NCBI GenBank assembly: GCA_938083005.1
Contig: CALKCU010000037.1
Location: forward strand, 1 to 58,337
DNA length: 58,337 bases
Reading direction: 5' to 3'
Source: an uncultured Sulfolobales archaeon
Lineage (GTDB): Archaea; Thermoproteota; Thermoprotei_A; Sulfolobales; NBVN01
Shown: positions 1 through 31,397 of the stretch, one piece after another
Layout of the letters: each line of letters opens with the position of its first letter
Numbering within the stretch: the stretch's first letter is position 1
Program-made: the position numbers and the translations under genes
Notes under the pieces: generated by a model
What the model was told of the DNA's origin: nothing
Databases searched by the model: none
Seen by the model: the letters and a program-made list of their open reading frames with translations, nothing else

Positions 1-36
1 CGCCGTTAATATTTATGTCAGCGCGCATCTAGGTGG

Positions 37-249
37 GTGGGAAGGACGACCGGCGCGTCTCTCGAGGTGGACCCCGTCTGCGGGATGCGGGTGGACCCGA
101 CAAAGGCCGTCTACAAGACGCTGTACAGGGGGAGGGTGTACTACTTCTGCAGCAGGCGCTGCAGGGACCTATTCGAGAGGAACCCCGAGCTCTACCTCGA
201 GCGCGGTCCCGAGGGCATGCCCGGTGGTCGTGCTGAGGGAGAGGGTTAG
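37..249 (+). CDS. YHS/TRASH-domain metallochaperone (CopM-like)
   Basis: DPVCGM...YYFCSxxC motif; 70 aa; overlaps the start of the P-type ATPase. Confidence 0.85.
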   Translation: MGRTTGASLEVDPVCGMRVDPTKAVYKTLYRGRVYYFCSRRCRDLFERNPELYLERGPEGMPGGRAEGEG

Positions 250-2635
250 GATAGTAGGCGTAGACTGCCCGACCTGCGTCTACTCGATCCAGAAAAGCCT
301 GGGGAAGCTGAGGGGCTTCCGCGGCATCGAGGTGGACCCGAGCTCGGGAGAGGCCGTCGTAGAGTACGAGAGCGGAGAGTGCGATCTGAGGGACGTCTAC
401 AGGGCCGTGAGGGAGGCCGGGTACGACCTCCTCAAGGAGAGGGTCCTGCTATCGCTCCGAGGACTGGGCGAGAGCGGAGCGAGCGCTCTCGAGTCCAGGA
501 TCTCCGGGATCCCCGGGGTCTTCGAGTGCCGAGTTTCGCCGGTGACGGGGCTCGCGAGCGTCGTGTACAACCCCCTATCCACCAGCGCCAGCGAGGTCGT
601 CGGGAGGATCAGGGAGCTCGGAGTGGAGGTGTCCGAGCTCTCGGAAGAGGTCCCGGGGGAGGAGCCCCGCGAGGGCTTCCTGCTCCTGAGGAGGCTCGCG
701 GCCTTCTCGATCGGGCTCTTCGCGGTGGTCTACGCTATGGTTGGCATGTACTACGAGCTGCTCCCGCATCGTGAGAGCGAGCTCCTGCTAGCGTCCCTGG
801 CCGCGGCGGCCGTGGCCGCGGGCTTCGACATAGTCTCCAGGGGGCTCAGGTCCCTGGCCCGGCTCTCCCCGACTATGGACTCCCTGGTGGCTTTGTCCGT
901 CCTGACCACCTTGGCGGCCGGCGGAGCGGGGGTCCTCGGTCTCGTGGAGTGGCGGATCGGCCTCCACAGCGCCTCCTTCTTCGAGGCCTCCGCCGGCGTC
1001 ATAGGCTTCGTGGGGCTCGGCAGGTACCTCGAGGAGAGGCTCAGGAGGAGGGCCTTCAGGTCCCTCGAGGACCTGGCCAGGACCCTCTACGGGAGGGCCA
1101 GAGTGGTCGAGGGCGGGACCGTGCGCGAGAAGAGCGTACCGAGCATCGAGCCCGGGGAGGTCGTGGAGGTCAAGGCGGGGGAGATAGTGCCGGTCGACGG
1201 AGTGGTCGTCGAGGGGTGGGGCTACGTCGACGAGTCGAGCTTCACGGGAGAGCCCGTCCCGAGGCTCAAGAGGTCCGAGACCAGGGACCCGGTGCTGGCG
1301 GGCAGCGTCCTGACTAGCGGCTACCTGAGGGTGCGAGTGACGAGGGCCTCCAGGGACACCGTCCTCTACCACATCGTCGAGACGGTCAGGGAGGCCCAGT
1401 TCTACAAGCCGAGGGCCGTGAGGGTGGCAGACAGGATCGTTGGGCTCCTGACGTGGACCGTCGTGGCCGTGGCCGTCCTCACTCTCGCCTACTGGTGGCT
1501 GGTGGCTGGAGAGCCCGCCCTCGCTCTAACGTTCTCGGCAGCGGTCCTTGCAGTAGCTTGCCCGTGCGCTCTCGGGATAGCCGTCCCGATGGTGGTCTCG
1601 ATAGCCGTCCTGAGGGCGGCTAGGAGCGGCGTGCTAGTGAGGAGGGGAGACGCCTTCGAGAGAGCGACCGAGGCCGGTGTAGTGCTGTTCGACAAGACGG
1701 GGACCCTGACCCTCGGGAGGCCCTCAGTCAGGGGAGTGTACGTCGTCGACGGGTCTGCCGACGAGGGGCTGGTTCTCAGGTACGCCTGCAGCGTCGAGTC
1801 CAGGAGCGAGCACCCGATCTCGAGGGCCCTGCTGGAGTACTGCGCGGAGAGGGGGGTCGAGCTCGGGGAGCCGTCAGAGTTCGTCCACATGCCCGGGATG
1901 GGGGTAGCGGGCCTCGTCGACGGGACGGTGGTCGCCGTCGGGAACCTGGAGCTAGCGGAGAGGTCCGGAGCGAGCTACGACGACAGGGTAGCGGAGCTCG
2001 TAGAGGAGATCGGGAGCAGGGGCTCCACGGCGGTGCTCGTGACCGTGGGAGGCAGGGTAGCGGCCGTCCTCGAGGTCGGGGACGCTCTCAGACCGGAGGC
2101 CAGAGAGGTCGTCGAGAAGCTGAAGTCGCGCGGTCTGAGGACGGGCCTCGCGAGCGGGGACACCGAGGCCAGCGTGAGGTACTACTCGAAGGTCCTGGGT
2201 CTGGACCTCGCGTTCCCGGAGCTCAGGCCCGACGAGAAGGCCGAGCTGGTGAAGGAGATGCAGGACAGGGGGCTCAGGGTCGTGTTCGTCGGGGACGGGG
2301 TCAACGACGCGCCGGCCATATCGTCCTCCTTCCTCGGAGTGGCCATGGGCAGCGGCTCCGAGGTCTCGAGGGAGTCCGGTGACGTCGTCCTGACCAGGAG
2401 CAGGCTGGCGGACCTCCTCTCGTTCTTCGAGCTGAGCAGGGCGGTGAGGAGGAAGTCCGCCGAGAACATCGCGTGGGCGTTCGTCTACAACGCCGCTCTC
2501 ATCCCGATCGCGGCGGGCCTGCTCTACGCGAGCCACGGCGTGTTCATCAGGCCCGAGATGGCCGCTCTAGCCATGGTGCTAAGCGACGTGAGCGTTGTAC
2601 TGAACGCCATGACCCTGCTCGCGAGGAGGGTCTAG
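224..2635 (+). CDS. copA: Heavy-metal (Cu+) translocating P1B-type ATPase
   Basis: N-terminal CPTC HMA motif, TGE, transmembrane CPC, DKTGT, HP, GDGVND, YN and MxxS in last helices. Confidence 0.92.
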   Translation: MVVLRERVRIVGVDCPTCVYSIQKSLGKLRGFRGIEVDPSSGEAVVEYESGECDLRDVYRAVREAGYDLLKERVLLSLRGLGESGASALESRISGIPGVFECRVSPVTGLASVVYNPLSTSASEVVGRIRELGVEVSELSEEVPGEEPREGFLLLRRLAAFSIGLFAVVYAMVGMYYELLPHRESELLLASLAAAAVAAGFDIVSRGLRSLARLSPTMDSLVALSVLTTLAAGGAGVLGLVEWRIGLHSASFFEASAGVIGFVGLGRYLEERLRRRAFRSLEDLARTLYGRARVVEGGTVREKSVPSIEPGEVVEVKAGEIVPVDGVVVEGWGYVDESSFTGEPVPRLKRSETRDPVLAGSVLTSGYLRVRVTRASRDTVLYHIVETVREAQFYKPRAVRVADRIVGLLTWTVVAVAVLTLAYWWLVAGEPALALTFSAAVLAVACPCALGIAVPMVVSIAVLRAARSGVLVRRGDAFERATEAGVVLFDKTGTLTLGRPSVRGVYVVDGSADEGLVLRYACSVESRSEHPISRALLEYCAERGVELGEPSEFVHMPGMGVAGLVDGTVVAVGNLELAERSGASYDDRVAELVEEIGSRGSTAVLVTVGGRVAAVLEVGDALRPEAREVVEKLKSRGLRTGLASGDTEASVRYYSKVLGLDLAFPELRPDEKAELVKEMQDRGLRVVFVGDGVNDAPAISSSFLGVAMGSGSEVSRESGDVVLTRSRLADLLSFFELSRAVRRKSAENIAWAFVYNAALIPIAAGLLYASHGVFIRPEMAALAMVLSDVSVVLNAMTLLARRV

Positions 2636-2648
2636 CCCCCGAGACCCT

Positions 2649-4142
2649 CTAGACCAGGGCCGGGACCATCGGTGCGCAGACCAGGACTGCCAGAGCCACC
2701 GCCAGTGGTATAAGCAGCAGCCCCGCCTTGGCCATCTCGTAGTTCTTGAAGTAGCCGAAGGAGTATGCTACCGCGTTCGGCGGCGTGCTCGCCGGGAGCA
2801 CGAACGCCAGCGCTGAGGCCACGCCAGCGACCACCCCGGCGACCCTCGGGTCAAGGCCCAGAGCGGACGCTATCCCCAGGACCACCGGGACCATGGCTGA
2901 GGCGGTTGCCGTTATGCTGCAGAACACTGTCGTGCTCAGCGCGGTTATCGCCGCCAGGACGGTCAGTGCCGCGTAGGGGTTCGCACCGCTTAGGCGCGCC
3001 GCCACGACTCTGCTCAGGTACGGTATGACCCCGGTCTCGCGTAGACCCTCCCCGAGGGCCAGCCCGCCGGCCACCAGCAGGAGGACCCCCCAGTCGACCT
3101 CTCGGGAGAGCTCCCTCCAGCTGAGGACCCCCAGGACCGGTGCCGTGAAGAGTATCACGGCCAGGATCGAGACCACGTAGGTCCAGTCCGCCGCCCAGGG
3201 GGACCCCCGGAAGACCGATGAGACTAGGGGGTCTAGGAGCCACAAAAGAGCGACCAGGAGGAAGAGAGCGAGGGCCCTCCTCTGGACGCCGCTCATCCTC
3301 CCGAGGGCCTCCAGCTCCCTCCTGACCCTCTCCGATCCCCCGGCGACTACCCTGCGCTCGGGGGGGTAGAGGAGCAGGAGGAGCCTCCAGGCCGCGAGGG
3401 TCAGGGCGAGGGCTACGGGCACTCCCCAGGCCATCCACGCCGCGAACCCTATCCTGGTGCCCGAGACCCTCTCGACGTTGTCTATGGCTATCGGAACCGG
3501 GGGAGTGCCGACCGGAGTCCCGACGCCCCCTATCGTGGCCGCGTAGGCTACCCCTATCATCACGGCCTTGCCGAAGCTGCTCCTACCCCTCTCGGCTCCC
3601 GAGAGCCTCAGGATGCCCGCGGCCACGGGAGCCATCAGGGCCGCGGCCGCCGTGTTCGGTATCCACATGGAGAGGGCCATCGTGGCGAGCATGACTCCCA
3701 GCATCAGCATGTCGGCTCTGTCTCCGACCAGGGAGGCTATCTTAAGACCTATGAACCTGTCGAGGCGGTGCGCGGAGAGCCCCGCGGCTATCGCGAGCCC
3801 GGCCAGGACCAGCACGTTGACCTTGGACGCCACGAACGATATCGACCTGGCCAGGGGGAACACGCCGTAGAGGGTCAGGAGCAGCATCACGACCAGCCCG
3901 GTAACGGGTATGGGGACGCACTCCGTCGCCCAGAAGACTATAGCGACGAAGGTTACTCCGACCATGGTCATGGCCTTCTGGTCCAGACCCTCCGGCGGGG
4001 GCAGGACCGATATCGCGTAAGCCGCGGCTAGCGCGGCGAGGGCCACGATAGCCTTGGACCAGGCGAACCCCGCTCCCTCCACGCTGGCTCGCCCCCGACC
4101 CGGCGCCCCGCTCGAGGCCTCCCTCGTCGTCGCCGTGAGCAT
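2649..4142 (-). CDS. DASS/SLC13 family di-/tricarboxylate or sulfate symporter
   Basis: Polytopic membrane protein with SMWIPNTA, GGVGTPVGTPP and LPASTPPNA motifs; start moved to ATG 4142 because the longer ORF overlaps the ABC gene. Confidence 0.85.
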   Translation of the reverse strand: MLTATTREASSGAPGRGRASVEGAGFAWSKAIVALAALAAAYAISVLPPPEGLDQKAMTMVGVTFVAIVFWATECVPIPVTGLVVMLLLTLYGVFPLARSISFVASKVNVLVLAGLAIAAGLSAHRLDRFIGLKIASLVGDRADMLMLGVMLATMALSMWIPNTAAAALMAPVAAGILRLSGAERGRSSFGKAVMIGVAYAATIGGVGTPVGTPPVPIAIDNVERVSGTRIGFAAWMAWGVPVALALTLAAWRLLLLLYPPERRVVAGGSERVRRELEALGRMSGVQRRALALFLLVALLWLLDPLVSSVFRGSPWAADWTYVVSILAVILFTAPVLGVLSWRELSREVDWGVLLLVAGGLALGEGLRETGVIPYLSRVVAARLSGANPYAALTVLAAITALSTTVFCSITATASAMVPVVLGIASALGLDPRVAGVVAGVASALAFVLPASTPPNAVAYSFGYFKNYEMAKAGLLLIPLAVALAVLVCAPMVPALV

Positions 4143-4224
4143 CTCCCAGCCCGGAGAGCGCTTCTGGAAAAAGGCGCGCTCGTCCTCGCTTATATTCGCT
4201 GAGCGCGCGGCTAGGCTAGAGTAG

Positions 4225-4962
4225 GTGGACTTCGTGATACTGGTAGAGGGGGTCTCCAAGTCCTTCGGGAGCCTGAGAGCCCTCGACAACGTCTCCTTCG
4301 AGGTCAGGAACGGGGAGGTCGTAGGCTTCGTGGGGCTCAACGGGGCCGGCAAGACGACGACGATAAGGATAGCCGTCGGAGTCCTTCCGCCCGACTCGGG
4401 AGACGTCCTGATAGACGGGTACTCGGTGAGGAGGGACAAGAGGAGAGCGTCGGAGAGGGTCGGGTGGCTTCCCGAGATACCCATGTTCGAGAAAGACTTC
4501 AGGGCTCTCGACTACTTCGCCTACGTGGCGGGCTTCTACGGGTTCTCGAGGAGCGAGGCCCTCGAGCTCGGGAGGGAGCTCATGACCAGGTTCGGCCTCG
4601 GGGACGCTATGCGCAGGAAGCTCGGGGAGTACTCCCTGGGGATGAGGAAGAGGTTCGCGCTCGCGCTCAGCATGGTGAACGACCCGCCGAACTTCATCTT
4701 CGACGAGGTGCTGAACGGTCTCGACCCTCAGGGGATAGCGTTCTTCAGGCAGCTGGCGACGGAGTTCAGGAGGGAGGGCAAGGCCGTCCTCTTCTCCTCG
4801 CACATACTGTCCGAGGTGGAGGGAGTAGCCGACAGGGTCGTCTTCATACACAGAGGGAGGATAGTAGCGAACATGAGCATCGACGAGATAAGGAGCAGAG
4901 TCGGCCGGGACCAGAGGGCTCTTGAGGAGTTCTTCTTCAAGCTCGTGGGTGTCGAGCGGTGA
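4225..4962 (+). CDS. ABC transporter ATP-binding protein (ABC-2/exporter type)
   Basis: Walker A GLNGAGKTT, signature YSLGM, Walker B FIFDE, SSH switch. Confidence 0.92.
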   Translation: MDFVILVEGVSKSFGSLRALDNVSFEVRNGEVVGFVGLNGAGKTTTIRIAVGVLPPDSGDVLIDGYSVRRDKRRASERVGWLPEIPMFEKDFRALDYFAYVAGFYGFSRSEALELGRELMTRFGLGDAMRRKLGEYSLGMRKRFALALSMVNDPPNFIFDEVLNGLDPQGIAFFRQLATEFRREGKAVLFSSHILSEVEGVADRVVFIHRGRIVANMSIDEIRSRVGRDQRALEEFFFKLVGVER

Positions 4963-6584
4963 GGACGGGTCCCGTGCTCTACGACCTCAGGAGGTCCGTG
5001 CTGAGGATCTCGACGCTGGTCCTCCTGGCGCTGGCGATACTGGCCGGAGTGGGGATGACGTACCTGTTCAGCGTGGCGTTCCTCCAGGGCGGCGTAGCGC
5101 TGGAGGACGTGAACTTCATGGGAGCCCTCGCCGCGAGAGGGGGTAGGGCCTACCTGATCGGGGTCTCCTTCGATAGCGAGGGGAGACCTATCGAGGGGCT
5201 CAGGGTCGAGCTCCTCCTAGGGGGGAGAGTGGTAGCGGAGGCCTCGTCGAACAGAGAGGGGCTAGTCGTGTCGGAGCTCGGCGTCGAGGAGCTGCTGAAG
5301 GCGGTCGCGACGGTCCCCGGCGTCCCAGCTCCCGCGCAGCCCGCGGCTCTGCCCGTGCCCACTCTGCGCCTAGTTAAGGGCTCCGTGAACCTGACGGTCG
5401 GCGGGACCCCCGAGCGGTGGGAGCTCCCGGGCCCCAGCGGCGTGGTTTCGTACAAGAGGGTGAGCGCGTACGTGCTCGACCTGGGGATCCGCCCGAAGGT
5501 TTACCAGCAGAGCCGGGGAGGTCCCTCCCTGATCTACGTGGACTCGACCGTCCTGAAGATGGGGGGCGGGAGGGTCTCGGCCGTGGTCTTCGGGTTCTCG
5601 CTCGACGGCGAAGGTCCGAGAGCTATCGAGGACCCGATATGCTACAACGCGACCCGGACCGCCGTCTCCGTCCAGCTGCTGTTCATGGCGGGCGGAGTCC
5701 CCGTCGAGGCGTACGGACCCCTCTCGGTCCCGGCGAACGGCACGATGGTGTACTACGGAAGCCTGGGGGGCTTCTGGAGCAAGCTCGACCTGAGGATCCC
5801 GGAGGAGCTCGCGAGGGGCGCCGGCGCGCGTCTCCTGGTCGTTGGCGTCAACGCCTCCTCTAGGGGGTACGAGTACTACTCGGGGTCCCTGTTCACGTGG
5901 GCCTCGAGGGCCCTGCGGACGGTGGCTCTCTCCGCGACCGGCTCGATAAACATAGTGCTCCAAGTGTTCGTCATAGCCGCGATCTACCTCTCCAACCAGC
6001 TGATGGCGAAGCCGAGGTCCTCCGGGGAGCTGGAGTTCGTGCTCTCGGGACCGGTGACGAGAGCCGACCTCTTTATCAACAGGTACGTGGCCCAGCTTAT
6101 GGCCTTCGCGGTGATGGCCGCGACGTTCGTTCTAGCCCTCCAGGTCTCGAGCAGCGCGTGGCTCAGCTTCTCCCTCGACGCGGGATCCGCGACCTACGTG
6201 TTCGCCGCCGCCTTCCTAACCATGGTGGCGTTTCTGTCTCTCTCCTACTCGATAGCCTCGTCTCTCAGGCCTGGCCTCTACATGGCCGCCGCGGTAGCGG
6301 CCTACGTGGTGTTCATGCTGTTCTGGGACACTCTCATGTACGCTCTGGGCTTCTCCCTCGGTCTGAGGAGCTACCAGGAGATCTCGGAGTTCGCCTCGAG
6401 GAGCGTCTACTTCAACCCGAGGATCGCGGGAGCCTTCTTCGTGGAGCAGCTCCAGAGCAGCATCCTGGGAACCAGGGGGACCCTAGATCCCCTCTACGCG
6501 ACGCTGTCGATCGTCGCGTGGGTAGCCGTCCCACCGATCCTAGCCTACCTGAGGTTCAGGAGGATCCCTCTGTACTCCCTGTAG
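4959..6584 (+). CDS. ABC-2 type permease with large extracytoplasmic domain
   Basis: N-terminal TM helix, long soluble region, C-terminal TM bundle with GELEFVLSGPVTR loop; GTGA overlap with the ATPase gene. Confidence 0.8.
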   Translation: MRTGPVLYDLRRSVLRISTLVLLALAILAGVGMTYLFSVAFLQGGVALEDVNFMGALAARGGRAYLIGVSFDSEGRPIEGLRVELLLGGRVVAEASSNREGLVVSELGVEELLKAVATVPGVPAPAQPAALPVPTLRLVKGSVNLTVGGTPERWELPGPSGVVSYKRVSAYVLDLGIRPKVYQQSRGGPSLIYVDSTVLKMGGGRVSAVVFGFSLDGEGPRAIEDPICYNATRTAVSVQLLFMAGGVPVEAYGPLSVPANGTMVYYGSLGGFWSKLDLRIPEELARGAGARLLVVGVNASSRGYEYYSGSLFTWASRALRTVALSATGSINIVLQVFVIAAIYLSNQLMAKPRSSGELEFVLSGPVTRADLFINRYVAQLMAFAVMAATFVLALQVSSSAWLSFSLDAGSATYVFAAAFLTMVAFLSLSYSIASSLRPGLYMAAAVAAYVVFMLFWDTLMYALGFSLGLRSYQEISEFASRSVYFNPRIAGAFFVEQLQSSILGTRGTLDPLYATLSIVAWVAVPPILAYLRFRRIPLYSL

Positions 6585-6585: not shown

Positions 6586-7797
6586 CTAGGGCCTCAGCTC
6601 GCCCTCGTACAGAAGGACCCTCCTCGCTCTCTCCGCGTAGACCTCCCTCTGCCTCCTCCACTCCTCCTCGACCTCCTCGACGTCTCTCAGACCCTCGACG
6701 CACTCCCTGACGCTCGCCGCTCCGGCCAGGTAGTCTATCGCGTAGCGGCTGGCCTTCGTGGACCAGCGCAGGTAGTCCTTCAGGTACTCGACCCGCCCCT
6801 CGTCCTCTCCGGTCAGCAGGGAGAAGCGATCGCCGTAGAGCTCCTTCACTACCCTGAGGACCCTGACGAACGTAGAGAACGGCCTGAAGGAGGTCCTGTC
6901 GGTCACGTGGACGTAGACCCCGCTAACCTCGGTCCCCCTGTACTTGCTCGCCCACGGGACGAACTTGACGGGCCTGAAGATTACTCCCGGCATCTTCAGG
7001 CTGTTCAGGGCCTCCGCGAGCTCCCTGGCCCTGATCCACGGAGCTCCTATCTGGAGGAAGGGGGAGGCTGTCCCCCTCCCCTCGGAGAGGTTCGTCGCCT
7101 CTACGAGGCAGGAGCCGGCGTAGACGAGGGCCGTCTCCAGGTTCGGGATGTTGGGGGAGGGGGGAACCCACGGGAGACCCGTCTCGTCGAACCACATCTC
7201 CCTCCTCCACCCGCCGAGCCTAGCCACCAGCACCTCTCCCCCCAGCCCCTCCACTCTCGAGTAGAAGAGGGCCAGCTCCCCCGGGGTCAGACCGTAGCGA
7301 GCCGGCAAGCTGGCGATCCCGGTGAACGAGCGGAGCGAGGGGTCGAGGACGGGCCCCTCGGTCACGGCGCCAGTCAGGGGGTTCGGCCTGTCGAGGACGA
7401 GGAGGGGGGTCCCCGCTTTCGAGCAGGCCGCGACGGTGTAGTAGAGGGTCGATGCGTAGGTGTACCAGCGGAGACCGAGGTCCTGGACGTCGTAGACGAC
7501 GAGATCGAGCTTCTGGACCTCCTCGACGGGAGGCTCGAGGGTCTCGCCGTACAGGCTGTAGACCCTCACTCCGTACTCCGAGTCGAGCCCTCCGCTCACG
7601 AGCTCTCCGGCCGCCGCGTGGCCCCAGAGGCCGTGCTCGGGCGTGAAGACGACCTCGACGCGTCCCAGCCTCCCGGCTATCTCGACGAGGTGCTCCATAG
7701 CTGGCGAGACGCCGGTGTGGTTGGTGACGAGGCCCAGCCTCCTCCCCGCCAACAGCCCGGGCAGCTCCCGGCTCTCGATCCCGGCCCTGACCCTCAA
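6586..7797 (-). CDS. namZ: DUF1343 family exo-beta-N-acetylmuramidase (NamZ/YbbC-like)
   Basis: GLVTNHTG, PEHGLWG, YSLYG, DVQDLGLRWYTY, LDRPNP, WVPPSPNIP, NLSEGRGT, IGAPW motifs; no signal peptide. Confidence 0.9.
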   Translation of the reverse strand: MRVRAGIESRELPGLLAGRRLGLVTNHTGVSPAMEHLVEIAGRLGRVEVVFTPEHGLWGHAAAGELVSGGLDSEYGVRVYSLYGETLEPPVEEVQKLDLVVYDVQDLGLRWYTYASTLYYTVAACSKAGTPLLVLDRPNPLTGAVTEGPVLDPSLRSFTGIASLPARYGLTPGELALFYSRVEGLGGEVLVARLGGWRREMWFDETGLPWVPPSPNIPNLETALVYAGSCLVEATNLSEGRGTASPFLQIGAPWIRARELAEALNSLKMPGVIFRPVKFVPWASKYRGTEVSGVYVHVTDRTSFRPFSTFVRVLRVVKELYGDRFSLLTGEDEGRVEYLKDYLRWSTKASRYAIDYLAGAASVRECVEGLRDVEEVEEEWRRQREVYAERARRVLLYEGELRP

Positions 7798-8789
7798 GGT
7801 CTCGACCTCCGAGGATCTCCCCCCGGTCCGGGACTCTGGAGCCCCTCCTCCGGGAGCCCGACCTTCTCGAGACTCTCGACGTCGTACCCCTCGATCGAGC
7901 TCATGTAGTAGAGCACGCAGCCGAGGAGAGGTGGCGCTCGCCTCACCTCGAACCTCCTCCCCCTCCTCGACTCTACCTCGAACCTGAGGGCGTCGGACAG
8001 GGGTCTGCAGCCGAGGACGGCGCTGCCGGTCCCGTAGACCACGGCGCCCTCTTCGAACCCTAGCTTCCTCTCCACCGCCGAGACCATTCTCTCGAGCTCC
8101 CGGGCCGCGTCCCCCATCAGCTCCAGGGCCAGCTCGCAGCCCAGCTCGGCGGCCCTGCAGGCGAGCTTAGCGAGCTCGGCCACTCTGCTCGGCGCTGCGT
8201 ACTCTCTGTAGAGCCTGCCCAGGGCGTCGCTGACCCCCGCCGCACCCAGCTCCTCTAGGAGGAGCCTCAGGGACGTATCGCCGACTCCGAGCCTGCCGTC
8301 GTAGCGCATCAGGGACCTGCGGACGAACTCCCTGCCGATCCAGTAAGCGCTCCCCTCGTCGCCGAAGAGGTAGCCCCAGCCGCCGGCTCTGGCCTCCGCT
8401 CTCCCCCTGCGGCCGTAGGCGAAGGAGCCGGTCCCCGAGGACACCAGGATAGCGTCTCGACCTCGCGCAGCGGCCGCGTACGCCGCCTCGATGTCTGTGA
8501 GAACCCACAGCTCGACCGGGCCGATCTCCCTCCTCAGAAGCTCCTCCACCTCCCTCCTGTACGCGGAGATCCCGGCTAGGCTGAAGACGTACCCGCCGAC
8601 GTCTTTCCCGAACTCTCTGAGGACGGGGCCAAGCAGAGACCTGAGGTTTTCCAGGAAGGCGGTGGGGCCGAGGACCGCGTAGTTGAGGGGAGGGCCCTCG
8701 AAGAGAGCCAGGGCCCGGCCCCTCCTCTCGAAGACTAGGGCTCTCGAACCGCTGCCTCCCCCGTCTACGGCTACCAGTATGGACGTCAC
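7794..8789 (-). CDS. BadF/BadG/BcrA/BcrD-family N-acetylhexosamine kinase (MurK/NAGK-like)
   Basis: VDGGGSGS, SGTGS, GGWGYLFGDEGSAYWIG motifs; GTG 8789 (alternative 8807) lies ~25 nt downstream of a TATA box; TTGA overlap with namZ. Confidence 0.85.
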   Translation of the reverse strand: MTSILVAVDGGGSGSRALVFERRGRALALFEGPPLNYAVLGPTAFLENLRSLLGPVLREFGKDVGGYVFSLAGISAYRREVEELLRREIGPVELWVLTDIEAAYAAAARGRDAILVSSGTGSFAYGRRGRAEARAGGWGYLFGDEGSAYWIGREFVRRSLMRYDGRLGVGDTSLRLLLEELGAAGVSDALGRLYREYAAPSRVAELAKLACRAAELGCELALELMGDAARELERMVSAVERKLGFEEGAVVYGTGSAVLGCRPLSDALRFEVESRRGRRFEVRRAPPLLGCVLYYMSSIEGYDVESLEKVGLPEEGLQSPGPGGDPRRSRP

Positions 8790-8810
8790 GAAACGGAAGC
8801 CGCTCACAGC

Positions 8811-8819
8811 AATATATAC
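8811..8819 (-). promoter_or_regulatory. TATA box for the kinase-namZ unit
   Basis: GTATATATT on the minus strand ~22-30 nt upstream of GTG 8789. Confidence 0.55.
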
Positions 8820-8845
8820 CGCGGGAGCCCGCTCGGGAGACCGCA

Positions 8846-9928
8846 CTAGAGGCAGGAGACGACTAGGTTGTGGAAGACGGGTCTGAAGCCGGCTATCCTG
8901 GTGTTCTCCCTGCTCGGGTGGACCCTGTTGCTCAGGAGGACGGCGACGAGCCTCAGCTCGACGTCTACGCATATCGAGGTACCGGTGAAGCCCGTGTGGC
9001 AGAAGGCCCTCCCGTCCGTGAGAAGGTCTCCGAAGAGTCTGCTGATGCCCTTCCTATAGACCTGCCACCCGAGCCCGTAGGGGTTCTCGCCGTCAGCCCA
9101 CGGTCTGAGCACGGTAGCGGCCGTGGCCCTCTTGAGGAGGCGGTCGCTCCTGCCCAGGTACGCTTGGAGGAGCTCGCTCCCCATCAGTGCGACCTCTGCG
9201 GCTGTCGAGAAGAGCCCCGCGTGACCCGAGACGCCCCCCAGCGCTCTGGCGTTCTCGTCGTGAACCACTCCCCTTAGGGGGAGGCCGGTCTCGGGATCGA
9301 GCTCCGTCGATGCCACCTGGTCCTCGGTGAAGCCGTGCTCTAGGGGGTTGTAGACGGTCCTCCTCAGACCCAGAGGTCTCGCGACGAGCTTCTCGAAGAG
9401 CCTATCGATCCTCTCACCGGAGACCCTCTCCACCAGCGCTGTGAGGACTATGTAGCCGACGTCGCTGTAGACCGCTCTCGATCCAGGCGGACAGCAGATG
9501 AAGGACCTCGCAGCCTCCTCCAGCAGCTCGGCCCTATCCCTCCTGCCGAATCTGTAGAGGGGCAGCGAAGGTGGGAGGCCGGCCGCGTGGGAGAGCAGCA
9601 TCCACACCTCGGTTCTGCTCTTGAGCTCGTCATGCCCGGCTCGGGTCCTCGAGTACTCGGGCAGGATCTCCGAGACCCTCTGCTTCAGGTAGAGGAGCCC
9701 CTCCTCCACCAGCCTGGCGACTATGAGCGACGCGGCGAGGGGCTTCGTCAGGGAGGCGAGGTCGTAGAGGGTCTCCGCGGTCGTGCTCCTCCTGGTGGGA
9801 ACGAGTTCCGCGTAGCCGAGAGCCTCTTCGTATACGGGCTCGCCGTCCTTGTAGACCGCCACGGACGCCCCAGGAAAGACGTCGCCGACGGCGCGGGCGA
9901 GGGCTGCCCTCAGCTTGCCGAAGTCCAC
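8846..9928 (-). CDS. Serine hydrolase, beta-lactamase/class C PBP fold (AmiE/YbbE-like muramyl-peptide amidase candidate)
   Basis: SxxK (ASLTK), LLSHAAG, YSD, GVVHDENA-GGVSGHAGLFS, HTGFTG, LSNRVHP motifs. Confidence 0.85.
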   Translation of the reverse strand: MDFGKLRAALARAVGDVFPGASVAVYKDGEPVYEEALGYAELVPTRRSTTAETLYDLASLTKPLAASLIVARLVEEGLLYLKQRVSEILPEYSRTRAGHDELKSRTEVWMLLSHAAGLPPSLPLYRFGRRDRAELLEEAARSFICCPPGSRAVYSDVGYIVLTALVERVSGERIDRLFEKLVARPLGLRRTVYNPLEHGFTEDQVASTELDPETGLPLRGVVHDENARALGGVSGHAGLFSTAAEVALMGSELLQAYLGRSDRLLKRATAATVLRPWADGENPYGLGWQVYRKGISRLFGDLLTDGRAFCHTGFTGTSICVDVELRLVAVLLSNRVHPSRENTRIAGFRPVFHNLVVSCL

Positions 9929-10221
9929 GGACCCTCCCTCAAGCTCTAGATCGCTCCTCCCTTATGTACTCTAGCACGAACGCGTCCCGGACCTCCAGGA
10001 GTTCTCTCGACGGAGGCGTCGGGACGGGGGTTCCGCGCCGCTCAGTCTAACGACCGCAGACGGATGCCTCCAGCTGTAGCAGAGACCGGAGAGCGTTGAC
10101 CGGCCGTCAGTGCGTGAGCGCTCGCAAGTAATAAGTGCCCCCGGCGACTCCTCTTGGTAGAACCAGTTGGACTTCCCGAAGTCTCCTCACTCGCGCTCGC
10201 GGAGAGAGGTGATGCTGCGGG

Positions 10222-13110
10222 GTGAGCCTCGAGGTGGAGCAAGCTGAGGAGTCCACGCTCGCCGCTAGGATCGCGAGTTCCCTTGGCGAGCTGCTCGGCG
10301 CTCGCTGCCAGATCGCTGGAGATTCGAGCATCAGGTGCTACCGCGGCGGGATCAGGATAGCCGCGGCGCTCTCGAGCGCCGCGGACGACGTGGAGGAGAG
10401 AATGGCTGAGATGCTCGAGAAGGGTCTAGCTGACCTGGCTCTGCTAGTGAGGCCTCTCGGAGGACCGTCGGGGGAGCTCAGGTTTAGCGCTAGGCTGAGG
10501 ACTTCCGGGGGACCCGGGGAAATCCTCGAGGGAGTAGAGCTGGAGACCCTCGCGAGCGCGATCGAGAGAGCTATCGAGGACCTCGTCTCGGGATCCGAGG
10601 TCGGGGGAGAGCTTGAGAGAGTGAGGAGAGCCGTGGAGCGGTTCGTCGAGGTGGCTACCCGCGGTGGGGTCCCGGGGATCCCCCGCTCCCGGCTAGTCGG
10701 AGCGCTCGGAGGTCCCTACGGCTCCGGCGCCTCCGAGAGTGAGGTGGTCCTGGTCCAAGAGGCCCTGGCGCTGTTCCTCTCAGCAGTCCTCTACGAGCGC
10801 TCGAGAAAGTCCCTCGGCCTCCCACCGCTGGACAGCTACTTGGAGTCCCTCGGGGCCCTTCGAGGGCTCGAGAGGGCCCTGTCGAACCTCCTGGAGACCC
10901 GCCGAGAGCCCCTAGTCGAGCTCGCGCTGGAAGCTCTGAGGAGCCTCCCCCCGGAGCTCGAGGGGCCCGTCCGGAGCCTAGCCGGGGTAGCCCTCGACGT
11001 AGCGGGGAGACCCCACCTACTGCTCAGGGACGTCGCCGGCAGGATATACCACAGAGTCGCCGGGGACGTAGCCCTGAAGAAGGGGCTCGCCACGTTCTAC
11101 ACGGAGGTCCCGGCCGCCTACCTGCTCGCGGACCTGGCTCTGAGGAGAGCGCTGAACACCGGCGCAGGAGCGGGAGCCTCCCGGGAGACGGCTGGGGGGC
11201 TCGCGAGGAGAGTCGCGGAGCTGAAGATAGCGGACTTCGCGTGCGGTAGCGGGACCCTGCTCGCGGCGACGCTTTACTGCGCCTCCAGGATAGCCAAAGC
11301 GGCCTGCTTCCTGAGCGGCGTCGAATGCCCGGGCGTCGAGAAGACCCTCGTCGAGAGGGGGCTCTACGGCTTGGAGGCGATGGAGTACGCCGCGGCCGTT
11401 GCTAGAGCGGGCCTCGCGATCATGTCCCCGGAGGTAGCAGCCGGGGTCGGCGTGTACGCGGTCCGCCTGGGCTCGGGTCCCGGGGGGAGAGCGAGCCTAG
11501 GGTCCCTGGAGCTCCTGGAGGTCGAGACCCTCGGCAGCTCGGTCTGGGTCGAGACCGTCGGCGGTAAGGTGGAGATCCCCGGCTCCTACGACGTGGTCAT
11601 CATGAACCCGCCGTTCACCAGACCAACCGGCAGGACCCGGGAGAGGTTCGGGGAGGCGGGGAGGGGATTCTTCGGCTTCGTGGCCGACCCGCGGATCAGA
11701 GAGACCCTCGTAGCTAAGTACCGAAGGATACGCGAGAGGGTTAGGAGGGACATGCTCGAGGTCGCTAGGAGGCTCTTCTCCTCAGAGCCTACGCTCTCCA
11801 GGGCCCTCGCGCGGCTGAGCAGCTACGAGACGGCGAGGTCTCGCGGGCTCGGCCAGTACTTCAGCGTGGGGCAGGCCGGCGAGGGGCTCCTCTTCCTCTA
11901 CCTCGCCTACAGGTACGTGAAGCCCGGCGGAGTAGTGGCCTTCGTGCTCCCGAGAAACCTCCTGTCCGGGGTCTCCTGGTTCCTGGCGAGGGCTCTGCTG
12001 GCCGAGGGCTTCCACCTCAGGTACGTGATCGTGAGCAGCGACAGCGAGAGCGGGTACAACTTCTCGGAGAACACGAGCCTCAGTGAGTGCTTGGTGGTCG
12101 CGGAGAGGGTCTCGGAGCACGACCCGAGCGAGGAGACTCTCTTCGTCGACCTCCTCAAAAAGCCCGGGAGCGTCCTCGGCTCTCTGCTCCTCTCCGAGGC
12201 CCTGGCGGCCGGCGCCGTAGAGCTCCCGCGCAGCGCGAAGTGTCTCGTCCGGAGGGTCCGGAGGGTAGAGCTACTCGAGAACCTCGACAACCTGAACAGG
12301 TTCGTGGCCCTCCCGGAGCCCGGAGTGGTCGACGCGGGTCTCAGGCTCCTCAGGCTGGGCGACCTGGGAGTCGCTGGGCTCAGAGTCCCGCTGGCCAGGC
12401 TCGGGGACCTCATCGCTTCGATAGGGATAGACTCGCCCCAGTTCCACGAGCACTTCAGGCCCACCCGCGCCAGGACCCCGTACCCGATACTGTTCGGAGG
12501 AGGGGAGCCGGCGAGGTCCGGGATCCTGGTGAGGCCCAACGCCTACGCCGAGCCCAAGACCCAGAGAGCCGCCGAGATCTACCGGAGGTTCTCCGGGAGG
12601 GTCGTGGTCCCGGATAGAATATGGATGGACACGGCGCACGTGATCTCGGCGTACTCCGAGACCCCGGTGGTCTCCAACGTCTTCTACATCGCTAGGCTCA
12701 GGGAGCCCTCGGAGCGCTTGGAGAAGGCCCTCGTCTACTGGCTGAACACCACGTGGGGAGTGCTGGCGGTCCTCATGAACAGGGAGGAAACCAGGGGCAG
12801 GTGGGTTAGGCTGAAGAAGGCTCAGTGGAGGCTCCTACCGGTGCCGGACTTCGGGAGGTTAGGACGGGACGCCGTGGCTAGGCTGGCCGAGCTCTTCGAC
12901 GAGATCTCCAGGTTCGAGCCCCGGAGGATACCGGACCAGTACTCCGAGGACCCGCGGGACGCCGACCCCCTGAGGCTCGAGATAGACCTCGGGCTCCTCA
13001 GAGCGCTGAACACAAGCGTGGACGCCGGGGAGGCTGAGGGGCAGCTGCGGACGCTGTACAAGGGGATGGCGGTGGCCCTGAGGCGCTGGATCGGTCGCTC
13101 TACGCCCTGA
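10222..13110 (+). CDS. Large N6-adenine DNA methyltransferase, Type IIG-like restriction-modification fusion
   Basis: TFYT, motif I DFACGSG before motif IV NPPF (gamma class), C-terminal TRD-like region; 962 aa. Confidence 0.8.
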   Translation: MSLEVEQAEESTLAARIASSLGELLGARCQIAGDSSIRCYRGGIRIAAALSSAADDVEERMAEMLEKGLADLALLVRPLGGPSGELRFSARLRTSGGPGEILEGVELETLASAIERAIEDLVSGSEVGGELERVRRAVERFVEVATRGGVPGIPRSRLVGALGGPYGSGASESEVVLVQEALALFLSAVLYERSRKSLGLPPLDSYLESLGALRGLERALSNLLETRREPLVELALEALRSLPPELEGPVRSLAGVALDVAGRPHLLLRDVAGRIYHRVAGDVALKKGLATFYTEVPAAYLLADLALRRALNTGAGAGASRETAGGLARRVAELKIADFACGSGTLLAATLYCASRIAKAACFLSGVECPGVEKTLVERGLYGLEAMEYAAAVARAGLAIMSPEVAAGVGVYAVRLGSGPGGRASLGSLELLEVETLGSSVWVETVGGKVEIPGSYDVVIMNPPFTRPTGRTRERFGEAGRGFFGFVADPRIRETLVAKYRRIRERVRRDMLEVARRLFSSEPTLSRALARLSSYETARSRGLGQYFSVGQAGEGLLFLYLAYRYVKPGGVVAFVLPRNLLSGVSWFLARALLAEGFHLRYVIVSSDSESGYNFSENTSLSECLVVAERVSEHDPSEETLFVDLLKKPGSVLGSLLLSEALAAGAVELPRSAKCLVRRVRRVELLENLDNLNRFVALPEPGVVDAGLRLLRLGDLGVAGLRVPLARLGDLIASIGIDSPQFHEHFRPTRARTPYPILFGGGEPARSGILVRPNAYAEPKTQRAAEIYRRFSGRVVVPDRIWMDTAHVISAYSETPVVSNVFYIARLREPSERLEKALVYWLNTTWGVLAVLMNREETRGRWVRLKKAQWRLLPVPDFGRLGRDAVARLAELFDEISRFEPRRIPDQYSEDPRDADPLRLEIDLGLLRALNTSVDAGEAEGQLRTLYKGMAVALRRWIGRSTP

Positions 13111-27545: not shown

Positions 27546-30500
27546 TCACACCAACCCCATATTCTCCAGATCGCTGTAGAGTATCGACAGCACCTCCTCG
27601 TAATCTTCCTGACCCCGCTCCACCATATCCATCCTCCTCTCAAGGTCCCTGGTTCTCTCCTCGCTGACGAGGTTCCCGAACCTCTTCACCAGGTAGTCGT
27701 AGACTCTCTCCCCGAGGAGCGTCGGATCCATGAAGCCCGCACTCCCGATCTTGAGAGCGTAGCCCCTCCTCAGGATGGTCTCCACGATCTTGGAGTACGT
27801 GCTGGGCCTACCTATACCCGCTCTCTTCATCTCGCGTACAAGGGACGCCTCCGTGTGAGGGAGGTGCCTGCTCCTGCTAAGCAGACTAAAACTGGACGCT
27901 AAGTAGGTGCCCGGCGCGATCGGCTTCCTGACGCGGATCGTCCTATCGTACTTGAGGAAGCCCTCTTTAACTACGGACGTGTATATCTCGAGGTACTTCC
28001 TGGGCTTTGCGACGATCTCACGGCCCTTCTTGAGCCTCATCACCATTCTGTACTTAAACCTGGAGACGACGACCTTGGCCCGAGCCGACTGGGACGCTAT
28101 GAACCTCCTGAAGATCGCGTCGTAGACCATGTAGTGCTCCCTCCGTAGCCTGATAACCGGCTCGATCACGCCCTCCTCTACGAGTCTCCGCAGGGTCTCC
28201 GCGTCGATGGGCCTCGTGGGCCTTATGGCCTCGTGAGCGCCCCCCTCACCCCACCTTCTGGGTCTGAAGATCTTCTTGTACCCCCTTCCTTCCACCTGTC
28301 TTAAATAGTCCTCGGCTACCCTGATCCCGGCATCCGAGACCCTGGTGCTATCAGTCCTGTGGTAGGTTATGAGACCTACCTCGAAGAGGTCTTGAAGTAT
28401 CTCCATGACCCTCGCGGCGGGCATTCTGTACCTACTGCATAGCTCGGAGAGAGCGGAGTCGGTGGTGAACGGAGGCGGTGCTTTGAGCAGCTTTCTCAGC
28501 TCTCCTCTCCTCGGGACTTCTACTATCACCTCGACCGAGGCTATGCTGGTGGCGCGCCGGATCTTCCTGTCGTATTCCTTCGGGAGTTCGTAGGTGAACT
28601 CTACGTCGCCCAGACCCTCGACGGTCGCGACCAAGACCCTCCTCCTAGTCGCCCTGTACCTCTTTTCGGCATCTATTACCCAGCCCAGGACCGGGGTCTG
28701 CACTCTACCCGCTGAGAGGTTCCTGTATACCCTTGGGTTCTTCTCGCAGAGGCTTCTGTACCGCTGTTGGGTCACCTCGCGGCAGAAGCCGATCCAGAAG
28801 TTCCCCTGGAGCTCCCTAGAGAGGGAGAAGCCTATCCACCTATCCTCGATACGCCTCACGAGCTGAGCCTTGACGAGCTTCGTATCAACGTCCCTGGGGT
28901 TAGCGATGGCGTTGAGTAGGGCTCTCCTCGTCACTTCGTGGAACTCTATCCTCCTAATGTTGCCGTTCATCGGGGCGACGAGGCTGACCAGGTCGTAGGC
29001 TATCTTCTCGCCCTCGGTATCCGGGTCCGTTCCGACCAGCACCTCGTCTACCTCCATCGCGACGTCTCTGATCGCCGAGACGAAGTCCCACGAGTTCACT
29101 ACGCGCTTCGAGCCGCAGTAGGGACAGGCGTCTTCTGCTGGCTCGTTCGTAAACTGTCTACCGCACGACTGACACCTCTTTATGGGAGCGTAGATGGGAA
29201 CGTACTTCAGGGGTCTGGGGTTCCCGCTCTTAATAGCTACCCCGAAGAGTATCCTCCACTCGCTGAAGTGAGTGGGCTCCGCGAGGTCCGTGATCAGATC
29301 GTAGACGTGACCTCCGGACGACGTTACGAGCAGGGTCTGATTGCCGAGGCTAACCTCGTATACGCGAAGCCTCCCGTAGACCCTAGTGCTCGGCCTCCCG
29401 AAGAACCTCGCCATGGTCCTCGCCTTGTTCGGGGACTCGACGACCAGGAGGGAGGTCTTGAACTCGAGCCCCCTCAGCTTCTTCAGCTCCTCCTCGGGCA
29501 CTGTGCCCTCGCGGATCCTCCTTATAAGCTCCCTGTCCCCATCGACCTCCTTCATGATCTCCTCAGGGTGGATCTCCGAGTACTTCACGAACTTGAAGTC
29601 GTCCATGACGAAGGAGAGCCTCCTCTCGAGCCCCCTCAGGAGCCTCTTGTCATCAACTATGGTTATCGAGATACCCCTGCTTATGCCCCCAAGGTAGAGC
29701 CTCGACGTCCTACCGCTCGCCTGGATGTAAGTCGGGGCGTCCGGGATGAGTACGTAGCGCTCCCCATTCTCACTCACGACAGCGACCTCGGGGTTTCGGA
29801 CTATGGAGTCTAGGACCCTGGGGTCCTTGATCAAGTCCTCGACGAGCTTGAGGGCTTCCACGAAGACCCTCTCGACAGAGGTCTCCGGCTCTCTAGCCCT
29901 CCTCATAACCTCCCTAAACCTCTCGATCGCGAAGGCCCCGGCCCTCCGCACGGTCCTCGCCAGCCTCGCGTAGCACCTCTCCAGCTTCTCGCGTACCTCA
30001 TCGGACTCGACGGAGCTTATCAGGATGGGCAGGAGCCTGAGGACGTCCGCCGCGTCGAGCCTCTCCACTCTTAGCGCGACCTTGTGCCTCGGGACGCCGA
30101 CGAAGACCGCATACCTTACGTGCTCGGGAAGGTCTATGCCCCTGACGAGCACTCCGTAGTACGTCGCTACCCCGACAAGCACGTCTACCTCTCCGGAGAC
30201 GAAGAGCTGCAGCGTACCGGTCTTCTTACTGTGGAGGGCCTCGGCTCTCACCCCCGAGGCTCTCAGGTGCTCCGCTAGGTGGTTAGCGTACTCTATACCC
30301 CGGTCGGTAGGTACGTAAACCAGCCCCCCCTTCCCCAAGCTCTTCACAAGCTCAGCCGCGGTCTCCTCGAGACTCTTGGAGGGAAGGATGTAGGCGTCGA
30401 CTACGTTCCTTATGAGCTCGGGACGCGCGCCGATGTCGAACCCTAGCAGCTCCCTGAAGAGCCTGGACCTGATGCCCCTGGGCGAGCCGGTGGCTGAGGA

Positions 30501-31397
30501 TATCACGAGCACGGACTTCACTCTCCTCGCTCTCTCCCTCAAGAGGCTCTCTCGCTCCGCCAGCTCCTTCTCCACGTCCTCCCGGGGACCGCGGTACGCT
30601 ACCTCCCTCCTCAGCTTTATGAGCTCCATGCCAGCGGCGATGTCCTCCTCGGAGAACCCCATCAGTTGCAGGATGAGCTCTATGGCTCTGGACCCGCGCA
30701 TGATAGCGTCTACGTCATCTACAAACACGTACCCGAATCTACGGCTCTCCTGCTCGTCGGAGTTCTTCATCTTGATCTTGTCGAAGTTCTTCATGAGGTA
30801 CCTGGATGTGGTGATGAGTATGTCGAAGTCCCACTTTTGTACCGCCTCCTCCCTCTTGAGCCTCTCGGACTTGCTCAGCCTGGAGTGTATCGAGACCACC
30901 AGGGCCGTAAGGCCTAGCCTGTCGAGGAACCTCCTCACTATCCTCTCGGCCTGATCCACCAGGATCGTCGTCGGCACTATGACGTAGCTCTTGCGCCCCT
31001 TCATAGCGAAGTAGATAGCGGCCAGGAGACCCGCGGTGGTCTTGCCGACGCCGGTGGGCGCCAGCATCGCGAACGATATCCCCTTGCTCAGCCGCTTGAG
31101 CCAGAGCTTCTGGACGCCCCAGGGCTCACTCCCCACGGCCCTCCTGAAGAGGTCCAGGAGCTCCCCGTAGACCCTCTCTACCTCCTCCAGCTCTCCGTAG
31201 AGCTTTATGGTGCCCCTCTCCCTCATCGCGCGGAACAAGGACTCCCTGTCGGCGATCACTTCACTGGACGGGAGGCACCTGACGCACGGAAGGCCGGCGA
31301 GGAGCCTCTTGTCGCTAATAGCACCTCCGCAGTTGGGACATGCCCTGAGGTACACAGCTAGCGACGCTTCATCAAGCTCCTCCCTAACTACTACCAC
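27546..31397 (-). CDS. rgy: Reverse gyrase
   Basis: N-terminal CPNC Zn finger, APTGVGKT, DDVD, YIQASGRTSR, VESPNKA, DPDTEGE, SAGRVQTP, ITYHRTD, GIGRPSTY motifs. Confidence 0.97.
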   Translation of the reverse strand: MVVVREELDEASLAVYLRACPNCGGAISDKRLLAGLPCVRCLPSSEVIADRESLFRAMRERGTIKLYGELEEVERVYGELLDLFRRAVGSEPWGVQKLWLKRLSKGISFAMLAPTGVGKTTAGLLAAIYFAMKGRKSYVIVPTTILVDQAERIVRRFLDRLGLTALVVSIHSRLSKSERLKREEAVQKWDFDILITTSRYLMKNFDKIKMKNSDEQESRRFGYVFVDDVDAIMRGSRAIELILQLMGFSEEDIAAGMELIKLRREVAYRGPREDVEKELAERESLLRERARRVKSVLVISSATGSPRGIRSRLFRELLGFDIGARPELIRNVVDAYILPSKSLEETAAELVKSLGKGGLVYVPTDRGIEYANHLAEHLRASGVRAEALHSKKTGTLQLFVSGEVDVLVGVATYYGVLVRGIDLPEHVRYAVFVGVPRHKVALRVERLDAADVLRLLPILISSVESDEVREKLERCYARLARTVRRAGAFAIERFREVMRRAREPETSVERVFVEALKLVEDLIKDPRVLDSIVRNPEVAVVSENGERYVLIPDAPTYIQASGRTSRLYLGGISRGISITIVDDKRLLRGLERRLSFVMDDFKFVKYSEIHPEEIMKEVDGDRELIRRIREGTVPEEELKKLRGLEFKTSLLVVESPNKARTMARFFGRPSTRVYGRLRVYEVSLGNQTLLVTSSGGHVYDLITDLAEPTHFSEWRILFGVAIKSGNPRPLKYVPIYAPIKRCQSCGRQFTNEPAEDACPYCGSKRVVNSWDFVSAIRDVAMEVDEVLVGTDPDTEGEKIAYDLVSLVAPMNGNIRRIEFHEVTRRALLNAIANPRDVDTKLVKAQLVRRIEDRWIGFSLSRELQGNFWIGFCREVTQQRYRSLCEKNPRVYRNLSAGRVQTPVLGWVIDAEKRYRATRRRVLVATVEGLGDVEFTYELPKEYDRKIRRATSIASVEVIVEVPRRGELRKLLKAPPPFTTDSALSELCSRYRMPAARVMEILQDLFEVGLITYHRTDSTRVSDAGIRVAEDYLRQVEGRGYKKIFRPRRWGEGGAHEAIRPTRPIDAETLRRLVEEGVIEPVIRLRREHYMVYDAIFRRFIASQSARAKVVVSRFKYRMVMRLKKGREIVAKPRKYLEIYTSVVKEGFLKYDRTIRVRKPIAPGTYLASSFSLLSRSRHLPHTEASLVREMKRAGIGRPSTYSKIVETILRRGYALKIGSAGFMDPTLLGERVYDYLVKRFGNLVSEERTRDLERRMDMVERGQEDYEEVLSILYSDLENMGLV

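Follow-up and report, generated by a model that had tools for sequence, protein, structure and literature searches.

The window analysed here, 58,337 nucleotides (nt) long, is contig C37 (CALKCU010000037.1) of the metagenome-assembled genome (MAG) G000 from an uncultured Sulfolobales archaeon (assembly GCA_938083005.1). On its minus strand it carries three genes arranged head to tail, hereafter called the triad. The first gene (8846..9928) codes for a PBP4B/AmiE-like serine hydrolase of 360 amino acids (aa), a predicted cytoplasmic amidase that would act on N-acetylmuramic acid (MurNAc) linked to L-Ala. The second gene (7794..8789) codes for a BadF/BcrAD-type sugar kinase of 331 aa when read from the GTG at 8789, with a predicted function as a 6-kinase for N-acetylglucosamine (GlcNAc) or MurNAc. 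The third one (6586..7797), which begins with TTG, encodes a 403-aa NamZ/GH171 (DUF1343) protein without a signal peptide, a predicted exo-beta-N-acetylmuramidase. The last two genes overlap in TTGA, since the NamZ start TTG occupies 7797-7795 and the kinase stop TGA 7796-7794. A Shine-Dalgarno-like GAGGGAGGG can be read at 9940-9932, ahead of the hydrolase gene. It belongs to the intergenic stretch 9929..10221 (no strand), which was read directly and is common to the triad and a divergent gene for a 962-aa protein. The kinase reading frame extends to an ATG at 8972, a start that would cause a 127-nt overlap with the hydrolase gene; the database copy of the kinase has 350 aa, which places its start at 8846, where an alternative GTG overlaps the upstream stop by one base. 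The common orientation of the genes, the TTGA overlap and the three protein families are as given in an earlier note on this DNA, and the families were borne out by Pfam matches.

The hydrolase matches the Pfam family Beta-lactamase (PF00144) with 200.3 bits; among the NCBIfam models PBP4B (NF002968) fits best with 187.6 bits, the next family reaching 45 bits. An alignment with Escherichia coli YfeW/PBP4B (K-12 record) revealed 34% identity over ~350 residues (E 5e-57), with the SLTK (SxxK), YSD and HTG motifs in register; the N-terminal extension of YfeW, ~46 residues in length, is not present in the archaeal protein. We predict a PBP4B/AmiE-type enzyme with a beta-lactamase fold, presumably also the fold of Bacillus subtilis AmiE, and with amidase activity on MurNAc-L-Ala. 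The kinase belongs to the BcrAD_BadFG family (PF01869, 94.5 bits). Its top solved structure, 8zo3, is annotated as 'N-acetylmuramic acid/N-acetylglucosamine kinase' (E 9.1e-22, 81.4 bits), and the DGGGS, GTGS and GGWG..GDEGS motifs for ATP and sugar are intact in the alignment of the two. The NamZ protein has both domains of its family, NamZ_N (PF07075, 227.1 bits, gathering threshold 26.9) and NamZ_C (PF20732, 154.3 bits, gathering threshold 25), its conserved core beginning after ~20 residues. In an alignment with the DUF1343 structure from Bacteroides in PDB entry 4k05 (E 2.6e-63), its PEHG and GRGT stretches are identical to that sequence. By way of the 4k05 alignment we infer that these stretches are the counterparts of Glu92 at the tip of strand 2 and of Arg279 in the C-terminal domain of B. 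subtilis NamZ (BsNamZ), and we predict an exo-beta-N-acetylmuramidase. In a crude hydropathy scan none of the three proteins had an N-terminal hydrophobic stretch or a membrane segment (maximum Kyte-Doolittle value over 19 residues of 1.55, 0.99 and 1.06 for the three triad proteins). They look cytoplasmic, in line with the earlier note, which had found no signal peptides.

Bacteria are the usual carriers of all three families, and G000 is a MAG of 70 contigs (1.33 Mb, 83% complete, 0.77% contamination), so that a bacterial fragment could have been joined to an archaeal contig during assembly or binning. However, the triad lies 6.5 kb inside the 58-kb contig, and genome G009 of the same genus carries it between the same flanks on a 146.7-kb contig, where 14 flanking and cluster genes follow the same order; the triad is therefore genuine archaeal DNA. 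Locus L012 ('uncultured Sulfolobales archaeon') gave values identical to G009, and the two were counted as one assembly. Moreover, the GC content over 6-10 kb (0.657-0.663) equals that of the neighbouring 2-kb windows (0.653-0.673), the synonymous divergence (dS) of the triad between G000 and G009 (0.41-0.51) is similar to that of flanking genes (0.35-0.45), and the right flank has conserved synteny in four other genomes of the genus. Chimerism and contamination are ruled out by these data unless both assemblies share a misjoin, and we regard such an artefact as exceedingly improbable. In the same genome pair the hydrolases are 83-84% and the NamZ proteins 89% identical. The ratios of nonsynonymous to synonymous divergence (dN/dS) are 0.15 for NamZ, 0.25 for the kinase and 0.22 for the hydrolase, compared with 0.11-0.42 for five flanking genes. 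Since the values of the triad are as low as 0.15-0.25, its genes are kept by selection.

The contig also codes for a reverse gyrase (27546-31397, minus strand) with zf_Rg, helicase, Toprim and Topoisom_bac domains, as well as for histidyl-tRNA synthetase, CTP synthase and a class I tRNA synthetase. Reverse gyrase is a marker of hyperthermophiles, and the IVYWREL fraction of the proteome, 0.48 by a rough formula on greedily called open reading frames (ORFs), likewise points to growth at very high temperature. No Mur-ligase domain came up in the five genomes tested; therefore, these organisms build no peptides of murein or pseudomurein. The assumption of the earlier note that the host is an archaeon without peptidoglycan synthesis thus holds.

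The same families adjoin each other in G009, G029/G039, G035 and G010 and in loci L013 and L018. The grouping of the triad is therefore not due to chance, and the co-occurrence elsewhere that the earlier note had envisaged is real. The most telling locus is L013, from a hot-habitat archaeal MAG labelled Thermofilaceae. Here, a PBP4B/AmiE-like gene lies divergently upstream of a kinase-MurQ-NamZ run, which is followed by genes for a PIG-L deacetylase and a GNAT protein. The L013 kinase and NamZ are 70% and 77% identical to those of the window, and the single gene between them encodes MurQ (TIGR00274, 319.2 bits, equivalog cut-off 302). Five Bathyarchaeia loci (L054, L065, L068, L071 and L076) have the order kinase-MurQ-NamZ as well, the MurQ of L054 scoring 317.2 bits against the cut-off of 302, and locus L016 of the Chloroflexota has the order MurQ-kinase-NamZ. 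In the archaeal locus L018 a MurQ gene next to the kinase gene (~4983-5934; G042:C164:12850-13566) is interrupted by an in-frame TGA, and its match to the model does not begin until position 51, which may point to gene decay or to a sequencing error. Two bacterial gene fusions were also encountered, AnmK-MurQ in an Anaerolineae MAG (L022 5846-7924, minus strand, 692 aa) and MurQ-PBP4B-like in a Eubacteriales MAG (L063 9277-11331, plus strand, 684 aa). On the sequence level both are Rosetta-stone links between recycling enzymes.

To our knowledge, MurQ has no substrate besides MurNAc 6-phosphate (MurNAc-6P). In an even sample of 401 genomes from the phylum, NamZ_N was present in 42 and MurQ in 37 genomes; 35 genomes had both, often adjacent, so that MurQ accompanies NamZ in 35 of the 42 NamZ-bearing genomes. 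The strongest argument that archaeal NamZ acts on wall sugar is that its MurQ partner knows only MurNAc-6P.

A second sample comprised 41 relatives including G000. Eleven of them have NamZ, 11 AnmK, 14 a lysA over the cut-off and 15 a member of the PRK02947 SIS family, and none has MurQ. The matches to NamZ, AnmK, lysA and SIS are concentrated in genera g1, g2, g18 and g24, and AnmK and orphan lysA co-distribute with NamZ in g1, g18 and g24. In G001, G002, G006 and G007 the lysA gene (TIGR01048, 427 vs 298 bits) directly follows a NamZ gene, which there is of a second type, distinct from that of the window. In G029/G039, AmiE-like, AnmK (NF007148, 445 vs 387 bits), Opp-type ABC transporter and NamZ genes all lie within 11 kb, and in G035 AnmK and AmiE-like genes are divergent from a SIS-NagA pair. 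DapF was absent from the five genomes tested. LysA would for this reason serve no biosynthesis, and salvage of meso-diaminopimelate from stem peptides is its obvious role. G000 itself has two lysA genes, one on contig C8 (17982-19076), which is cut by the contig end, and one on C2 (11296-12501); one of the two has an in-frame TGA, and this is not the C8 copy. The C8 gene is accompanied by genes for a pyroglutamyl peptidase and three GH130 phosphorylases, and a second NamZ gene could lie beside it in unassembled DNA.

On these grounds we consider it fairly probable, taking the explanation as a whole, that the three genes form one operon, that this operon serves the intracellular breakdown of imported peptidoglycan fragments of bacterial origin, and that it descends, with MurQ lost, from a kinase-MurQ-NamZ cluster circulating among hot-habitat archaea. 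Fragments with MurNAc at the non-reducing end, i.e. MurNAc(-peptide)-GlcNAc as produced by bacterial glucosaminidases, would enter through an importer encoded elsewhere. Judging from their families, the PBP4B/AmiE-like hydrolase would then remove the stem peptide, and NamZ would split MurNAc from GlcNAc. Because such fragments carry MurNAc at the non-reducing end, NagZ would not be needed. The BadF-type kinase would phosphorylate GlcNAc, and probably MurNAc, at O6. From GlcNAc 6-phosphate (GlcNAc-6P), NagA would form glucosamine 6-phosphate (GlcN-6P) for glycan synthesis or catabolism. The stem peptide would be broken down, and its meso-diaminopimelate could be converted into lysine by the orphan LysA. 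The MurNAc-6P step might be taken by the NagS-like SIS protein encoded beside NagA, an assignment we make only tentatively; otherwise MurNAc would be discarded. The nagA gene of G000 is located on contig C14 (TIGR00221, 314.8 vs 225.65 bits), where it adjoins genes for the PRK02947 SIS protein (258 vs 135 bits) and an M20 peptidase. The C14 segment 12240-15320 (L117 8238-11321) comprises genes for a 354-aa AbrB/MazE-domain protein, NagA and the NagS-like UPF0309 SIS protein, with the M20 peptidase alongside; a homologue of the 354-aa protein is encoded beside AmiE-like and AnmK genes in G029 and G039.

Several observations weigh against this explanation. MurQ over the cut-off was found in none of ten genomes of the genus and was matched in none of the 41 relatives at E <= 1e-15. 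A MurQ remnant between the kinase and NamZ genes could not be detected in the window or in G009 either, the best tblastn hit (E 0.77) being at chance level. NagZ, searched as GH3, was missing from the four genus genomes G000, G009, G005 and G001 and was found only in G035. Classical NagB was absent from all five genomes tested, and AnmK is missing from G000 and G009. At 83% completeness the absences in G000 are provisional. With MurQ absent, MurNAc-6P has no known outlet, and the sequence of events in the earlier note, in which MurNAc is released and then phosphorylated, comes to a dead end here. No importer adjoins the triad, and the neighbouring ABC-2 transporter is of the exporter type. The assignments of the individual proteins are limited, too. 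The hydrolase stays below the PBP4B equivalog cut-off of 385 and is thus no equivalog, and the kinase scores 71.7 bits against the NagK_SO3507 equivalog (NCBIfam), whose cut-off is 370. The second solved structure for the kinase, the Sulfolobus tokodaii hexokinase 2e2n (E 3.1e-19, 73.1 bits), scores nearly as well as the MurNAc/GlcNAc kinase, and the sequence of the protein gives no decision between MurK and a general archaeal hexokinase. The MurK-like kinase of the earlier note therefore stands as regards its BcrAD_BadFG family but not as regards its substrate. It is nevertheless plausible that the enzyme phosphorylates MurNAc, because it is orthologous to the L013 kinase that precedes MurQ. 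Finally, the secretion signal known from BsNamZ and from NamZ1-3 of Tannerella forsythia (TfNamZ1-3) is not in the window NamZ; this is a difference of location, not of fold. The characterised NamZ enzymes are all secreted (PMC8054146; bioRxiv 10.1101/2021.12.02.470905). In sum, the murein-scavenging pathway proposed in the earlier note is backed by its genomic context, i.e. MurQ in L013 and the co-occurrence in the phylum, whereas MurQ and NagZ are missing and no continuation after phosphorylation is known.

The missing MurQ and NagZ and the cytoplasmic look of the proteins would also suit a triad that turns over the cell's own GlcNAc-rich glycans, such as N-glycans and surface-layer glycans, or chitin-type oligomers, with the NamZ and PBP4B-like enzymes having drifted in function. 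GH171 members vary in specificity (bioRxiv 10.1101/2021.12.02.470905). In addition, six genomes of the genus have a second type of NamZ, 37-42% identical to the window protein, which in G004/G005 occurs in a general amino-sugar setting with a GH42-like hydrolase, SIS protein, ROK kinase, S9 peptidase, carrier of the major facilitator superfamily (MFS) and Opp-type ABC transporter. The G005 locus L096 (G005:C11, 5467-18392) spans 13 kb and encodes the ROK kinase, a NagS-like SIS protein, the GH42-like enzyme, NamZ type B, a nitroreductase, the S9 peptidase, the MFS protein and an Opp-type ABC importer. A change of substrate is, however, hard to reconcile with the close ortholog set in L013, which includes MurQ, with the joint occurrence of NamZ and MurQ in 35 of 42 NamZ-bearing genomes, and with the way AnmK and orphan lysA follow NamZ in g1, g18 and g24, both being murein-specific in all biology known to us. 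We therefore think it rather unlikely that the triad serves such glycans.

If peptidoglycan fragments are the substrate, the fate of MurNAc-6P has to be considered. We know of no function for NagS-like SIS members outside Streptomyces. The SIS protein encoded on C14 resembles Streptomyces NagS (PDB 9eol, E 1.2e-40), and counterparts of NagS H53, S54, R64, E94 and S119/S121 are kept by spacing. When MurQ was compared by profile with nine SIS proteins from archaea, the probability was 96.9%, and the glutamates E83 and E114 of MurQ, invariant in the alignment, were paired with glutamates that the SIS family likewise keeps without exception. We take these two residues to be catalytic in MurQ, although a literature search found nothing on this role. 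In the phylum sample the SIS family occurs in five of the seven NamZ-bearing genomes without MurQ and in one of the 35 with MurQ. Furthermore, in G099, G161, G263 and L027 the SIS gene is located directly upstream of NamZ, the place that MurQ takes elsewhere. From these observations one could propose, with more doubt than conviction, that the NagS-like UPF0309 SIS protein is a non-orthologous MurNAc-6P etherase and thus part of a MurQ-independent wall-sugar route in hyperthermophilic Thermoprotei. The triad and the AnmK clusters of its relatives would then feed a complete pathway from muropeptide to GlcN-6P, with meso-diaminopimelate going to lysine via the orphan LysA. One objection to an etherase is that no more than three independent lineages stand behind this pattern (g1, g18 and g78). 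Another is that 15 genomes of the phylum sample have the family but lack NamZ, in G123 and G033 with the SIS gene beside NagA, and a SIS gene beside NagA in genomes without NamZ fits a GlcN-6P deaminase equally well. NagS has been described as a MurQ-related UPF0309 enzyme, a GlcNAc-6P dehydratase acting at C2-C3, and homologues outside the Streptomycetaceae with ~30% identity as lacking dehydratase activity; MurNAc-6P is unmentioned in the main text of that paper (PMC12680351).

A deaminase at this position would be in keeping with a partial harvest. Following the loss of MurQ, the cell would recover GlcNAc and the amino acids of the stem peptide, excrete MurNAc, or MurNAc-6P after dephosphorylation, and use the SIS protein as GlcN-6P deaminase after NagA. 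This would agree with the absence of MurQ from all 41 relatives and with the purifying selection on the three genes. NagA-SIS pairs without NamZ, as in G123 and G033, are what a nagA-nagB-like pair would look like, and the lack of classical NagB in the five genomes leaves the deaminase otherwise unaccounted for. On the other hand, we know of no product of AnmK other than MurNAc-6P. AnmK is nonetheless present in 11 of the 41 relatives, all without MurQ, where it would be senseless without an outlet, and the SIS genes directly upstream of NamZ speak against a deaminase. The S. coelicolor NagS, moreover, does not use GlcN-6P, according to the NagS study (PMC12680351). Such a harvest is a possibility of some weight, albeit an unlikely one, and we give preference to the dismantling of imported fragments as outlined above.

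To trace the origin of the cluster we considered NamZ trees, synteny and the nearest relatives. The two trees, one of 89 rows under LG+G4 and one of 54 rows under a PMSF mixture, are quick and provisional, and several rows have a deviant composition. In both of them, all 13 Thermoprotei NamZ sequences fall on the same side of one branch (SH-aLRT 98 and 92), and Bathyarchaeia NamZ sequences nest among bacteria. The nearest relatives of the kinase and of NamZ are from MAGs labelled Thermofilaceae. Within the genus the triad occurs in two of ten genomes only, and the synteny of four other genus genomes with the window ends at the triad border. As the left flank was not found beside the conserved right flank in G001, G002, G005 and G006, the triad is situated at a rearrangement boundary. 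The old acquisition suggested in the earlier note is thus supported by the single group of Thermoprotei NamZ, but not by the presence of the triad in two of ten genomes at a synteny breakpoint. An old entry of NamZ into the Thermoprotei, a later move of the cluster from archaeon to archaeon and the loss of MurQ fit these data.

The left flank (1-6584) encodes a heavy-metal P-type ATPase, a Na/sulfate-type symporter and an ABC-2 exporter pair, and is common to G009. Two transport systems in the window were considered as importers. The ABC-2 transporter (4225..6584) is an unlikely candidate, being of the exporter type and convergent to the triad; the other, a Peripla_BP_2/FecCD system encoded at 37-40 kb, is an ABC transporter of the iron or cobalamin type. 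The divergent 962-aa ORF (10222..13110, plus strand) was rejected as a part of the module; it has no Pfam match, carries S-adenosylmethionine-dependent methyltransferase motifs (DFACGSGT, NPPF) and is absent at the G009 site. In G001, a homologue with 52% identity lies ~7 kb away from the gene for the other type of NamZ. The ORF probably represents a mobile gene for restriction-modification or defence.

The enzymes belong to known families, and their logic is as in the systems of B. subtilis and T. forsythia. What differs is the domain of the host, the cytoplasmic NamZ and amidase, the soluble kinase in place of a phosphotransferase system (PTS), and the lack of MurQ and NagZ. In the archaeal and Chloroflexota clusters the same kinase and NamZ families are adjacent, and L013 also has an AmiE-like gene in divergent orientation. 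These clusters have a MurQ gene next to the kinase and NamZ genes or in the middle of them, whereas the kinase gene of the window and that of G009 are followed immediately by NamZ. In E. coli, the PBP4B homologue of the window hydrolase is encoded together with MurNAc catabolic genes in the run murR, murQ, murP and yfeW, a locus without NamZ or a soluble MurNAc kinase. T. forsythia reportedly has a MurK of the BadF family as well as MurQ. Through GH171 enzymes this bacterium takes wall sugar from other bacteria (NamZ1/NamZ2, MurT, AmpG); it needs MurNAc for its own wall, and its NamZ proteins carry signal peptides (bioRxiv 10.1101/2021.12.02.470905). The murQ-murR-murP-amiE-nagZ-namZ cluster of B. 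subtilis shares the AmiE amidase and the GH171 NamZ, and the peptide is taken off before MurNAc is released. There, however, AmiE, NagZ and NamZ are secreted, the PTS phosphorylates the incoming MurNAc and MurQ is present (PMC8054146); in G000 the three proteins lack signal peptides, a soluble kinase stands in for the PTS, and searches detected neither NagZ nor MurQ. A close parallel is offered by anaerobic ciliates, a wall-less lineage that acquired the same list of genes laterally (pbp4b, NamZ, anmK, murQ, PIG-L deacetylase and lysA) and in which the authors read them as a pathway for the digestion of bacterial walls; these hosts are eukaryotes that digest prey in vacuoles and possess murQ (PMC13198582).

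No study of NamZ, MurQ or AnmK from archaea turned up in a literature search, and the founding NamZ paper covers bacterial taxa only, the word archaea being absent from it (PMC8054146). About one tenth of the sampled genomes of this archaeal phylum has NamZ, mostly together with MurQ, and NamZ also occurs in vent or hot-spring lineages without murein. The MurQ-less clusters raise the question of how the lactyl ether is removed, with the NagS-like SIS family as the obvious candidate. Among the pools of bacterial necromass, peptidoglycan ranks with the largest, and the enzymes that recycle it have been treated as a bacterial matter. If the enzymes act as predicted, archaea would help to turn over the walls of bacteria even at the temperatures of hyperthermophiles, and they would be a source of heat-stable muramidases, amidases and MurNAc kinases.

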